Below are positions 10,841 to 46,228 of a stretch of 64,000 nucleotides of DNA, in pieces. The notes below the pieces were generated by a model that saw nothing but the letters and a program-made list of their open reading frames with translations, did not search any database and had not been told where the DNA came from. The position numbers and the translations under genes were made by a program. The stretch's first letter is position 1; every line of letters starts with the position of its first letter. The stretch comes from Fidelibacterota bacterium. Lineage in GTDB: Bacteria; Fidelibacterota; Marinisomatia; Marinisomatales; Marinisomataceae. The DNA lies in NCBI GenBank assembly GCA_028140795.1, contig JAOIOW010000002.1:5988-69987 (forward strand). The letters are read 5' to 3'.

Positions 10841-11403
10841 TTTGAATCAAGAATTTGTTTTATTTCACTGCTTAAAAATTTTTCTTCTGGGAAACCTACA
10901 ATATTATTATAACATCCGTCAATATTTTTAATGAAATATTCCTCAGCATCTTCAATATTATATGAGCCAGCTTTATCCAGAACATCGAAATTGTTAATAT
11001 AATTTTTAATTTCTTCCTTACTTAATGTTTTAAATGAAACCCTTGTGCTATCATAAATATTGATTTGGTTTTCATTATAAGTTAAAGATAAAGCACTTAT
11101 TACATAATGTGATTTACCTGACAATAAAGATAAAACTTCAAAAGCATCCTGATAAGAAGATGGTTTACCGATAATTTTATTTTGAAACTCTACTATGGTA
11201 TCTCCTGAAAGAACAAAGGCATTTTCATACTGTTGATGAACTTTTAATCCTTTTCTCATCGAAACATCTATTACATAATCGATGGGATTCAATTGATTAA
11301 TATTTTTCTCATCAATATCAGGAACTTTAATACTAAAATTGTATCCTAAATTTTCTAGAATTTTCTTTCGTCTTGGAGAACTAGATGCTAATATTATACC
11401 CAT
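10837..11403 (-). CDS. maf: Maf-like nucleoside triphosphate pyrophosphatase (septum formation protein)
   Basis: 188 aa with the Maf signature MGIILASSSPRRKKIL at the N-terminus and GSYNIED...GFP near the C-terminus. Confidence 0.85.
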   Translation of the reverse strand: MGIILASSSPRRKKILENLGYNFSIKVPDIDEKNINQLNPIDYVIDVSMRKGLKVHQQYENAFVLSGDTIVEFQNKIIGKPSSYQDAFEVLSLLSGKSHYVISALSLTYNENQINIYDSTRVSFKTLSKEEIKNYINNFDVLDKAGSYNIEDAEEYFIKNIDGCYNNIVGFPEEKFLSSEIKQILDSK

Positions 11404-43140: not shown

Positions 43141-43746
43141 ATGGAAACATCTACTGGACAATCAGAAACTCGAATTATTGCTTCAACAAATGTTTTCCAA
43201 ATAGAAAAAATTGAGAAGATTGGTAAAGCCGATTATCCAAAACTGATTGAAATATCATTACACCTTGCTAAAGAATACGGGAAGCAAGCAGTCTTCACAA
43301 AAGCTTCAATAGAAAAATACTTTAATACTGAAAAATCTCTTCCTTTTATTGCAAGATATCAAAACGAAATTATTGGCTACATTATTGGGATTCCATTAGA
43401 AGAACTTACCATGGAGCCTTGGGCATTGAATGATGAAAATTATGGTAAGCATAACACCTTGTACACTTATGCTTTTGTTATAATGGAAAAATATAAGTCC
43501 AATGGATATGCTAAAATGTTAAAAAGAGTCTATTTAAGCTGGGCACAAAAACGTGATAGAATAAGATATATTACAGGTCATGTTTTGTCTGGCACTGCTG
43601 ATATAAAGGATAATAGTATAAAGATAATATCTTTTGAAGAAAATTGGCAAGGTACCGGTAAGTCATTTGAATACTATAGAAGATCTTTTGATGAAGGTGT
43701 TGAAAGTTCTATCTTTAGTCCGCCATTCGAAATAATAGTTGAATAA
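43141..43746 (+). CDS. GNAT-like acetyltransferase-fold protein, function unknown
   Basis: 201 aa. IIGYIIGIPL (beta4-like), then YAFVIMEKYKSNGYAKMLKRV, which resembles the GNAT motif-A acetyl-CoA loop (x-x-x-G-x-A). I recognised no closer family. Confidence 0.45.
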   Translation: METSTGQSETRIIASTNVFQIEKIEKIGKADYPKLIEISLHLAKEYGKQAVFTKASIEKYFNTEKSLPFIARYQNEIIGYIIGIPLEELTMEPWALNDENYGKHNTLYTYAFVIMEKYKSNGYAKMLKRVYLSWAQKRDRIRYITGHVLSGTADIKDNSIKIISFEENWQGTGKSFEYYRRSFDEGVESSIFSPPFEIIVE

Positions 43747-43747
43747 A

Positions 43748-44833
43748 TTAAAAAAATGTTTTTAGAGCTTTATTAGAAATTTCATAGTTCATTTGAATCT
43801 TTAAAACCTCTCTTTCTTTAAATTCTAAATTTTGGGAAGGATGCTCAATAAATTTAAATATTTCTTTTTGTTCAGAATTGATATTGTAAACCAAGCATAT
43901 TATAAAAAATTCTTTCTTTTGTTTTGCAACTTCCCATTCTTTGCTTGTAAAAGTTATTGAACCACTATCTGAAGACAAACTTTTAACTTCAATGCAATAT
44001 TTTCCTTCATCAGCTAAAATTTCAAAATCATATCCACATTGGTCTTCAGTAGTATTTTTAAGATTTCCAGAGATGTTTTTTCCACTACTTAATTTCAAAA
44101 TACCTTCTTTTAAAAAATATTTTTCAAATAGTCTTTCACCCATTTTTCCAGTTTTTAATCTTTGTTTTGGATTGTAATTATTATGTTTTTTTTTATCTAA
44201 TTTCTCATTTTGAGCTATTAAATGTGAAAAATTATTTTGAAAATATTCATCATTATTTAAAAGTTTTTTTACAATTGAAAAAAGTTCATTTCTATTCAAA
44301 TCTTCTAATAATTCTGCAGTTGAATAGAAACTTCGAGGTAAAGTATCCTGTACATAACCTATTCTAAAGTCAAATAATGTATCAAATTTGTCTCTCATTT
44401 GTTTTAAATATGAATTTTGTTTCATGCCAAGCTTCATACTTAAATCTCTTTCGACTTCCTTTTGAGAATTGAATTTATCTTTGTAACCAAACTCTAAGTA
44501 AGCCTCCTTATTGTATTTTGCTAAACAATAAGCAACAATCAATCCTTTTTGATTAGGTTTATAATATAATTCTTTTTGGTAATTGTGAGTTAACCCCCAA
44601 AAACCTTTACCTTTTCCATAAACTGGAGTGAAAAGTTTTGGATAACCGTCTTTATAGCTATCTGTATCAATGCTATGCTCTTCAATTCTAGCTCGAATAT
44701 TAGCTTTCCATGTTTTAGGAAGAATTTTATTATCAATATTGTACAATCTTTTAACCTCTTTGTAAAGATTATCATATGAAGATTGTCCATCAAGATTTTC
44801 TAGTGCAATTATTATGTAGTCAACTAATCGCAT
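43748..44833 (-). CDS. Stand-alone wHTH + PD-(D/E)xK (DUF3883-like) nuclease-fold protein
   Basis: 361 aa. Residues 1-85 look like an Mrr_N/HARE-type winged helix (DYIIIALENLDG...WKANIRARIEEHS...GKGFWGL). Residues ~228-335 carry GYDFEI-x10-IEVKS...FTSKEWEVAKQ...FFIICLV, a D269-x12-E282-x-K284 core plus the following helix, typical of DUF3883. Confidence 0.55.
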   Translation of the reverse strand: MRLVDYIIIALENLDGQSSYDNLYKEVKRLYNIDNKILPKTWKANIRARIEEHSIDTDSYKDGYPKLFTPVYGKGKGFWGLTHNYQKELYYKPNQKGLIVAYCLAKYNKEAYLEFGYKDKFNSQKEVERDLSMKLGMKQNSYLKQMRDKFDTLFDFRIGYVQDTLPRSFYSTAELLEDLNRNELFSIVKKLLNNDEYFQNNFSHLIAQNEKLDKKKHNNYNPKQRLKTGKMGERLFEKYFLKEGILKLSSGKNISGNLKNTTEDQCGYDFEILADEGKYCIEVKSLSSDSGSITFTSKEWEVAKQKKEFFIICLVYNINSEQKEIFKFIEHPSQNLEFKEREVLKIQMNYEISNKALKTFF

Positions 44834-44839
44834 ATATAA

Positions 44840-46228
44840 TTATTTCTTCAAATAACTTATTAGAACTAACGAAGTTGATGAAATTGCTAGCGCAGGTATT
44901 ACAGCCTCATCTAAACTCCACTGATTTCCAAAATACACTGTAGCAACTATACCTGAGAGTATTGAACAAATAGCACCATACTTTGTTGCTTTATCCCAAA
45001 AGAATGCAGCTAATAGAGTTGGAGTAATTGCAGTTCCATAGATTGTAAATGCATATAGTGCTTTTTCAAAGATAGTTGTATCAGCGGCAAACATTCTTGA
45101 AACCCAATACGAAAAGAATCCTAAAGCTAAAACTAAAATTCTGCTGAGTGTAACAATCATTTTATCTGAATATTTTTTATTTGAATACTTTAAGTAAATA
45201 TCATTGATCAAAATAGTTGTAGGGACCAATAAAAAAGAGTCTGCAGTCGAAATTATTATACCAATAATTGTAGCAAGCATAATTGCACCTACGATAGGTG
45301 GAAGGAAATTGTATGCAGCATAGATTAATACATGTGATTCTTTTGCAATATCCGTAATCATACTTGAACTAATCCAAGCATTTGCAATAATTAAAGATTC
45401 TAAAATGACTACAGCAAAGAATAAAAGGAAGGTTGCCTTTTGAGCTGATTTAACGGATTCACTTGCAAAAAATCTTTGATACATATTCGCATCTCCGAGA
45501 ATCAATAAAAATGAAGGTAATGTAAAATTAATTACATCTCTAAATGATAAAACGCCAAATAAAGACATATTGTTTGGCATACCTTTGTTTTCAAAGCTCA
45601 TTGCCATTCCTTCAAATCCACCAGCTTGAAAAAATAGAATTGGTAATGCTATAATAAAACAAATAATCATCAAAATACCATTAGCAACATCTGTATAAGC
45701 AACGCTCAATAGTCCAGCTAATACTGTATACGCAACAATAAATAATGCTGCAATAATAGTTGCCTGATCTAATGATAGGTTTGAACCTAAGTTGTCATGA
45801 AAAATAGTATAAATAACTGCTCCACCAGCGTTAAACTGATAACTTACAATCACTAAATAAGCTGTTAAGAGTGCAACTACAGATAAAATCATTGCAACAT
45901 CACCAAAACGTGATCCAATAATTTCCGGTACTGTTAATTTTTCAGATGCTCTTGCTTTTCCTGCAATTTTTGTAAGTGCTAAAACACCAAGCATTCCTCC
46001 AATTGGCAGTAAAAAGCCGGCTGCACCAATTTCAAATGTTTTTCCTGCGTTACCAAGAACTGAACCAGTACCCATCCAAGTTGCTGCCATGGTTCCAACT
46101 AATATCCATGGAGATAATGATCTTCCTGCAACTGAGAAATCTTCCTGATTCTTTATGGAATCTGATTTACTAAAACCGATCCAAAGTAATGCAACAAGAT
46201 AAATTGATATAATTAGGTAATAAATCAT
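44840..46228 (-). CDS. Sodium:solute symporter family (SSF) transporter
   Basis: 462 aa with about 13 TM helices. N-terminal SVAGRSLSPW and internal LAGLLSVAYTDV motifs typical of the SSF family. Confidence 0.75.
   Translation of the reverse strand: MIYYLIISIYLVALLWIGFSKSDSIKNQEDFSVAGRSLSPWILVGTMAATWMGTGSVLGNAGKTFEIGAAGFLLPIGGMLGVLALTKIAGKARASEKLTVPEIIGSRFGDVAMILSVVALLTAYLVIVSYQFNAGGAVIYTIFHDNLGSNLSLDQATIIAALFIVAYTVLAGLLSVAYTDVANGILMIICFIIALPILFFQAGGFEGMAMSFENKGMPNNMSLFGVLSFRDVINFTLPSFLLILGDANMYQRFFASESVKSAQKATFLLFFAVVILESLIIANAWISSSMITDIAKESHVLIYAAYNFLPPIVGAIMLATIIGIIISTADSFLLVPTTILINDIYLKYSNKKYSDKMIVTLSRILVLALGFFSYWVSRMFAADTTIFEKALYAFTIYGTAITPTLLAAFFWDKATKYGAICSILSGIVATVYFGNQWSLDEAVIPALAISSTSLVLISYLKK

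Follow-up and report, generated by a model that had tools for sequence, protein, structure and literature searches.

A solitary nuclease-type gene among housekeeping genes

Why should a gene for a predicted DNA nuclease lie alone among housekeeping genes in an uncultured marine bacterium? The gene in question occupies positions 43748-44833 (minus strand) of a 64,000-nucleotide stretch of contig JAOIOW010000002.1 from a Fidelibacterota bacterium (assembly GCA_028140795.1). We call this whole stretch the window and give all positions in its numbering. The product, here the window protein, is identical to NCBI MDA9716561.1, annotated as a "DUF3883 domain-containing protein" of a Candidatus Marinimicrobia (Neomarinimicrobiota) metagenome-assembled genome (MAG). 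An earlier sequence-only reading had reported a 361-residue open reading frame (ORF) at these positions, with its ATG 6 nt past the stop of the upstream sodium:solute symporter (SSF) gene, and that is exactly what we found.

Our preferred answer, to which we give a probability of about 0.5, is that the protein may be a stand-alone DNA endonuclease of restriction or defence type (type IV-like), directed by sequence or structure and carried as a strain-specific accessory gene. Judging from its homologs, the window protein is a derivative of a component of Mza-type operons joined to a separately mobile winged-helix (wH) module. The sequence-only reading missed both this origin and the ORF-exact insertion of the gene at a hotspot. 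The parts of the gene are listed below; HTH stands for helix-turn-helix and pLDDT for predicted local distance difference test, the confidence score of AlphaFold2.

43748-44833, minus strand: complete gene, 361 amino acids, ATG start; wH, HTH and NOV_C/DUF3883 nuclease domains (open reading frame call)
44579-44833, minus strand: winged-helix module of DNA-binding type, residues 1-85; a separately mobile domain (AlphaFold2 and Foldseek)
44189-44557, minus strand: HTH-containing helical domain, residues ~93-215, with the motif ...LSMKLGMKQNSYLKQMRDKFD... (AlphaFold2, pLDDT 74-95)
43829-44161, minus strand: PD-(D/E)xK nuclease core (NOV_C/DUF3883), residues ~225-335 (Pfam, AlphaFold2 and Foldseek)
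44135-44137, minus strand: codon of E233, the conserved acidic residue of the first core helix (invariant, 66 sequences)
44027-44029, minus strand: codon of D269, the "D" of PD (invariant, 66 sequences)
43982-43990, minus strand: codons of E282-V-K284, the (D/E)xK motif (E282 and K284 invariant, 66 sequences)

The C-terminal domain has an intact PD-(D/E)xK active site

By every testable criterion, the window protein belongs to PF13020 (once DUF3883, now NOV_C) and to the PD-(D/E)xK superfamily. The Pfam model covers residues 255-322 with 53 bits against a cutoff of 22.1 (E = 3.6e-14), and DUF3883 was placed in the superfamily by Steczkiewicz et al. (PMC3424549). The sequence-only reading had proposed a DUF3883-type core with the motif D269-x12-E282-x-K284, and both proposals held. 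In an alignment of 66 diverse relatives, D269, E282 and K284 are invariant, together with E233, G267, T296, E299 and A303; E233, D269, E282 and K284 are also invariant in a second family alignment.

In a full-length AlphaFold2 model built on 45 homologs, the nuclease core had a pLDDT of about 90-98 and an alpha-beta-beta-beta-alpha-beta order of elements (helix 228-243, strands 257-260, 270-274 and 277-286, helix 297-309, strands 310-316 and 325-330). The high-probability Foldseek matches of this core were all minimal PD-(D/E)xK nucleases, namely Hjc, SPARDA DREN, I-Ssp6803I and RecU/PrfA. Hjc resolvases came out on top, with a probability of 1.0 and template modeling (TM) scores of 0.5-0.59.

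Two predicted DNA-binding domains precede the nuclease

The middle domain is assigned to the HTH class on the evidence of its relatives. Pfam scans of the equivalent segment in 36 of them matched HTH_23 in seven (best E = 2e-6), Sigma70_r4_2 in five and the terminase small-subunit HTH in five, with other matches to MerR_1, HTH_28, HTH_38, HTH_17 and GerE. The window protein's own middle segment matched no HTH family in Pfam because it is too divergent; it still aligns with the relatives throughout, and R147, D148, D151 and R157 are conserved. The earlier comparison of this domain with modules associated with McrA/HNH proteins has to be given up, as the segment is an HTH domain that always travels with NOV_C in a family of ~260-residue proteins.

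For residues 1-85, the sequence-only reading had the fold right, but its family label found no support. It described a winged helix in the style of Mrr_N or HARE. The full-length model was poor at the N-terminus, where the alignment lacked depth. Residues 1-91 were rebuilt with 17 homologous modules, and the resulting model (pLDDT 94.8) is a true winged helix with the canonical a1-b1-a2-a3-b2-b3 topology. The closest solved folds in Foldseek are the DNA-bound forkhead domains of FOXN1, FOXP3 and FOXO1 (TM 0.6-0.7, probability 0.97-1.0); further down the list come ORC winged helices, SspB and, at rank 37 with TM 0.41, the DpnI winged helix. No Pfam family matches the module, and the window protein matches neither HARE-HTH (PF05066) nor Mrr_N (PF14338). 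Among the 17 homologs, one gave a weak HARE-HTH match (E = 0.032) and none matched Mrr_N.

The three-domain fusion appears to be rare and is maintained

HMMER, run exhaustively against 1.84 billion representatives, returned 436 matches at E ≤ 0.001, and these split into two groups. One group aligns with residues ~93-361 and consists of proteins of ~255-270 residues that have just the HTH and NOV_C domains and carry the annotation "DUF3883 domain-containing protein"; the other aligns with residues 1-85 only. Only three proteins with the full wH-HTH-NOV_C fusion were found: the window protein itself, a copy identical at 360 of 361 residues at the same site of a second Marinimicrobia MAG (GCA_028141335.1), and a 68%-identical three-domain homolog, P0002, on a 1.26-kb metagenomic contig. 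It seems to be very rare for this forkhead-like wH module to be combined with an Mza-type HTH and NOV_C.

Between the window gene and P0002, the ratio of nonsynonymous to synonymous substitution rates (dN/dS) is 0.19 overall, with 0.28 for the wH, 0.09 for the HTH and 0.26 for the nuclease domain. The overall value argues that the fusion is a maintained, functional protein. We rejected a decaying pseudogene or remnant on the strength of this ratio and of the intact active site. The P0002 gene is flanked by a 14-nt direct repeat, AAAAAATAATTATT (positions 17-30 and ~1230-1243 of its contig, L094), of low complexity. The repeat resembles AAAAAATAATTA at the empty Marinimicrobia junction described below, and could be an insertion footprint or an AT-rich chance resemblance.

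The wH module occurs in many other settings. Proteins homologous to residues 1-85 include the module alone, wH-HNH (HNH_2 nucleases among them), two wH copies with HNH, wH-NOV_C, wH-EVE-NOV_C, two wH copies with DUF4268, and three wH copies. Some lie on Ligilactobacillus and Priestia plasmids, where they are annotated as "HNH endonuclease", the Priestia copy in a defence-island-like neighborhood. Tandem copies (two or three, in P0111, P0117 and P0073, joined to DUF4268 or HNH) may recognize repeated or extended DNA features. A word-indexed homolog search with the N-terminal 95 residues found nothing. No wH module was found in phage genomes by tblastn against phage GenBank, the full window protein had no match there either, and the HTH-NOV_C family was not found on viral contigs.

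The HTH-NOV_C core resembles a component of Dcm-linked Mza-type operons

What, then, do the short relatives do? Their gene lies between those for Dcm and a GHKL ATPase in Dcm-linked operons of the order Vsr-Dcm-X-MzaB-MzaC-MzaD-MzaE, where X is the HTH-NOV_C gene. PADLOC scored the four downstream proteins as MzaB, MzaC, MzaD and MzaE (E from 1e-20 to 1e-147) and the methylase as DrmMII/type II methyltransferase (MTase_II). The same operon is present on Hymenobacter and Terribacillus plasmids, one example being plasmid NZ_CP043645.1 of Hymenobacter sp. NBH84. We examined 80 further metagenomic loci of short relatives, 50 of which had at least 1.3 kb of upstream sequence. Dcm was present in 42 of these 50, almost always adjacent and overlapping, and Mza partners in 24-25 of 27 loci; the wH module was present in none of the 80. 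These similarities indicate that the core of the window protein derives from one of the components of Mza-type defence operons linked to Dcm.

Among the short relatives, P0008 comes nearest to the window protein (43% identity); it lies between a Dcm C-terminus, with the motif GNAVPP, and a Vsr-like gene. The latter, downstream of P0008 at L093 1012-1944, encodes a Vsr-like endonuclease with a C-terminal extension of ~170 residues, and the contig ends there.

The mzaABCDE defence system was reportedly described by Gao et al. in 2020. In the operons found here, the HTH-NOV_C gene takes the MzaA position, upstream of the MzaB-like genes. MzaA has been described as sigma-factor-like (PMC9523054). 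The system has been validated experimentally (PMC9523054; bioRxiv 10.1101/2022.06.16.496414), and MzaD (DUF4420) is a demonstrated nuclease (bioRxiv 10.1101/2022.06.16.496414). With the PADLOC models, no MzaA similarity was detected for the window protein or its HTH domain.

In one lineage, at L090/L091 8360-20780 and beside a tyrosine integrase, a Vsr-Dcm-HTH/NOV_C triad is followed by a DISARM-type set instead of Mza (a DrmE_C-like protein, a NERD/UvrD helicase, DrmA and an MZB/DUF1998 protein), so the Dcm and NOV_C pair combines with more than one ATPase/helicase module. A few short HTH-NOV_C genes are solitary (L111 9974-10768 and L114 1854-2654). They have no wH, Dcm or Mza, lie among housekeeping genes of high-GC organisms, and one of them adjoins an IS200/RAYT-like transposase. 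These copies show that detachment from the operon happened more than once. To judge by the searched literature, it is new for such a protein to have arisen by detachment from a multi-gene system.

An ORF-exact insertion at a strain-variable junction

The window gene lies between two convergent core genes. The features of the site are as follows.

43747-44836, no strand: strain-specific insertion relative to seven close relatives; ORF-exact, 1.09 kb (blastn synteny)
44834-44839, minus strand: 6-nt spacer TTATAT from the SSF stop to the ATG of the nuclease gene; no room for a promoter
44840-46228, minus strand: upstream core gene, sodium:solute symporter (SSF; Pfam PF00474, E = 1.3e-43), kept in 80 relatives
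43141-43746, plus strand: convergent downstream core gene, GNAT acetyltransferase (Pfam PF00583), conserved in relatives
Cargo at the same junction in other strains: L035 11410-11853, L018 4107-4550, L015 11427-11759, L016 11479-11883, L059 7608-8244, L067 11481-13068, L072 12282-13625

Over 22.5 kb (33.7-56.2 kb of the window), seven relatives align colinearly with the window at nucleotide identities of 86-97%, and the sole gap of more than 50 nt is 43747-44836. The inserted DNA holds only the nuclease ORF, whose stop is 1 nt from that of the GNAT gene, and no other strain-specific insertion was found within 10 kb on either side. The closest relatives, whose SSF is 98-99% identical, have the stops of the two genes directly next to each other, ...AAATAA|TTACTC..., within the empty-site sequence ...AAATAATTACTC..., also written ...TATTTGAAAAAATAATTACTCTAC.... 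At the boundaries we found AT-rich chance repeats only in place of a target-site duplication or terminal (inverted) repeats, and no tRNA or structured RNA.

Using the SSF protein as a probe, we collected 80 Marinimicrobia loci from GTDB species representatives. None of the 80 carries the nuclease gene. It is not a strictly conserved core gene, as the defence reading proposed from the sequence alone requires, and a core housekeeping function was rejected for the same reason. Across Marinimicrobia, the content of the junction (43746/44840) varies from strain to strain, which makes it a micro-hotspot. The closest relatives have nothing there, and other strains have solitary DpnI-family (PF06044) ORFs of 147 and 110 residues that have the catalytic domain only, a DUF6249 membrane protein, VapBC pairs, or an AAA_14/DUF4143 ATPase with a Gp49/HTH_3 (HigBA-like) pair. 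The window gene is therefore a strain-specific accessory gene of defence type in a cargo hotspot. Four MAG contigs (L017, L032, L036 and L037) end inside the 3' part of the SSF gene, at locus positions ~10984-11290, and the SSF of L017 is 100% identical to that of the window over 430 residues. These breaks are consistent with population heterogeneity at the hotspot, which may have interrupted the assemblies.

Comparison with known nucleases and defence systems

Stand-alone genes that join DNA-recognition domains to a DUF3883 nuclease are already known. YenY4I (PUA-DUF3427-DUF3883) and the McaZI group (DUF3427-DUF3883) are modification-dependent enzymes in which DUF3883 is catalytic, and enzymes of this kind are often stand-alone genes without a cognate methyltransferase (Lutz et al. 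2019, PMC6765204). Compared by domain description only, they share with the window protein a single polypeptide with N-terminal DNA recognition and C-terminal DUF3883. They differ in their recognition domains, which are PUA and DUF3427 there and a forkhead-like wH plus HTH here.

Closer in sequence are the short HTH-NOV_C proteins, which are homologous to the window protein over residues ~93-361 at 27-43% identity and have the same HTH plus PD-(D/E)xK layout; to the invariant residues given above, this comparison adds R157 and G229 (full set R157, G229, E233, G267, D269, E282, K284, T296, E299 and A303). They lack the wH and lie in operons of six to seven genes with a methyltransferase, whereas the window protein is solitary and has the wH. 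From the other side, the wH is 38-49% identical over ~85 residues to the modules of wH-HNH, wH-NOV_C and wH-EVE-NOV_C nucleases (P0108, P0131, P0078, P0070 and P0093, the last being the relative in which the module co-occurs with EVE), but these have another catalytic domain or no HTH domain.

The gene does not fit the named systems. Relatives of its HTH plus NOV_C core precede MzaB-like genes, and their partners score as MzaB-E, but the window lacks MzaB-E, and Dcm is no part of canonical Mza. Without the partner genes, the window gene is not an Mza system. PADLOC, one of the checks named in the sequence-only reading, gave matches only to the C-terminal part of Tiamat TmtA and none to MzaA. 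The C-terminal 130-250 residues align with the C-terminus of the TmtA models (E from 1e-13 to 1e-5), which span 1063-1782 positions and include an ATPase, whereas the window protein has 361 residues and no ATPase in Pfam. It is not Tiamat, since the ATPase is missing and only the TmtA tail is matched. DpnI (type IIM) likewise combines a PD-(D/E)xK domain and a winged-helix reader in one small solitary protein, but its domain order is reversed, the window protein has no sequence similarity to PF06044, and the structural match to the DpnI winged helix is weak. Nor is this a type II restriction-modification system, because no linked methyltransferase was found (the insertion is the ORF only, and the 64 kb contain no Dcm).

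A possible mechanism and its standing

In the preferred reading, that of a stand-alone restriction- or defence-type endonuclease, the wH and HTH would bind DNA and position the nuclease domain for cleavage. The enzyme would attack DNA that the host does not have, modified or otherwise foreign, which would be type IV-like behavior. Since the gene arrived without a methyltransferase, the host most likely tolerates the enzyme because its targets would be unlike the host's own DNA, and the modification-dependent DUF3883 enzymes YenY4I and McaZI are a precedent for such behavior. Modification dependence of the window protein itself is something that we purely infer. The compact single-gene, DNA-sensing nuclease of type IV-like character put forward from the sequence alone is thus still the best reading, as a prediction.

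Several points weigh against it. Pfam found no recognized modified-base reader (EVE, SRA, PUA, YTH or DUF3427) in the window protein, so membership of type IV comes only from the "no methyltransferase" criterion and from analogy. The methyltransferase view covers 64 kb of the genome, and an unlinked enzyme is possible. Nuclease activity, target and phage protection are predicted properties, for the window protein and the ~260-residue family alike. The short family could be regulatory in the Mza-type operons, given its HTH and the sigma-factor-like character of MzaA, whose position it takes. The Foldseek E-values of the nuclease core are weak (0.03-1) despite the high probabilities, and PADLOC has no model for the wH-HTH-NOV_C architecture, its matches being limited to the TmtA tail.

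A more specific form of this reading is tentative, and we consider it clearly less probable than the general one. Here the protein would be a single-gene anti-phage or anti-plasmid restriction enzyme, a nuclease subunit that escaped from a Dcm-linked Mza-type system and captured a forkhead-like wH reader, and the wH would represent a new family of readers of DNA, possibly modified DNA, in small HNH, NOV_C and EVE nucleases. If this escape took place, the ~260-residue HTH-NOV_C family would be the sequence-recognizing nuclease of Dcm-linked Mza-type systems. The window protein would add a compact single-polypeptide DUF3883 nuclease with a wH reader to the stand-alone restriction enzymes, would exemplify a subunit of a multi-gene defence system that was detached and re-tooled as a solitary effector, and could be of use as a reagent if modification- or sequence-specific. 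The locus also draws attention to the ~260-residue HTH-NOV_C component of Dcm-linked Mza-type operons, and to a tiny defence/toxin hotspot at one intergenic junction in the abundant, streamlined, uncultured marine SAR406/Marinimicrobia, whose defence biology is poorly known.

Alternative explanations

Among the alternatives, the one that we rank highest, though as unlikely, is a selfish mobile nuclease of homing- or addiction-like type. It would cut the empty SSF/GNAT junction or another site and would persist or spread by repair copying or post-segregational killing, with no role in host defence. An ORF-exact insertion (6 nt upstream, 1 nt downstream) with no accessory DNA is what such an element might leave, other selfish-type cargo (DpnI-like nucleases, VapBC, a HigBA-like pair) sits at the junction, and contigs of four relatives break there. 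The homing endonuclease I-Ssp6803I, also PD-(D/E)xK, is among the structural neighbors, and two DNA-binding domains would suit a long target. However, tight gene packing is normal in this streamlined genome, and any target-site duplication or terminal repeat at the boundaries is no more than AT-rich sequence gives by chance. We know the gene from a single site, in two MAGs that are nearly identical, and from one divergent copy besides. Neither viral contigs nor phage genomes yielded a relative, there is no intron or intein context, and the parent family of the protein is a fixed operon component rather than a free-standing mobile gene. We regard as doubtful too, and place next, a DNA-binding regulator or inert orphan: a detached protein of the MzaA position that works mainly by way of its wH and HTH, for example as a transcription factor or a nucleoid-associated protein, with the nuclease fold kept for dimerization or as a sensor. 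The two DNA-binding modules and the slot of the short family, that of the sigma-factor-like MzaA (PMC9523054), speak for it, as does the suggestion of Steczkiewicz et al. (PMC3424549) that HTH and PD-(D/E)xK fusions point to regulation. Against it stand the catalytic residues, all invariant in 66 relatives and kept here, and the purifying selection on the nuclease domain (dN/dS 0.26); the PADLOC models show no similarity to MzaA, and a gene absent from 80 relatives regulates nothing essential.

Ranked just behind the regulator, and likewise improbable, is a restriction endonuclease of the conventional kind, with a protecting methyltransferase (for example Dcm) whose gene lies in a part of the genome beyond the 64 kb of the window. 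The short relatives adjoin and overlap Dcm in 42 of 50 loci, P0008 has a Dcm C-terminus and a Vsr-like gene on its flanks, and the inspected sequence is part of the genome. On the other hand, the inserted DNA is this ORF only, there is no Dcm or Vsr in the 64 kb and no other strain-specific insertion within 10 kb on either side. Cleavage in the parent operons is also probably shared with MzaD (bioRxiv 10.1101/2022.06.16.496414), and it is therefore not clear that the short family is "the" restriction enzyme. Far less probable than any of these is a housekeeping nuclease of repair or recombination, such as an Hjc-like resolvase. Archaeal Holliday-junction resolvases do lead the Foldseek matches, but this similarity is to the generic minimal PD-(D/E)xK core, and the family context is one of defence operons. 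The gene is missing from the 80 Marinimicrobia loci, including those of strains with 97% nucleotide identity in the flanks, and this presence/absence pattern effectively excludes a housekeeping resolvase.

Genomic setting, expression and composition

In further searches, NCBIfam, PHROGs and PDB sequence comparisons with the whole protein gave nothing useful, and PDB profile searches with three alignments (A2, A4 and A5) gave chance matches only, such as coiled-coil repeats of a C-type lectin. An Rfam scan of 41-48 kb of the window had no match. In tblastn searches of the window with 5-6 representatives per partner, no Dcm, Vsr or Mza was found; other methyltransferase classes were not searched for. 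Within 6 kb on either side, the genes are of housekeeping type (SSF, GNAT, PyrF, PyrE, a patatin-like lipase, DsbD, an SDF transporter and HflX).

A promoter scan of the gene region gave no signal above chance, and no terminator was found. Given these results and the 6-nt spacer, the SSF gene is probably the source of transcription, and the nuclease gene would be expressed by read-through. With 26.0% GC, the gene lies below the mean of the other ORFs (30.0%; z = -1.4) and ranks 5th-6th lowest of 54. This is only mildly low, and horizontal acquisition would not have been suspected from composition alone.

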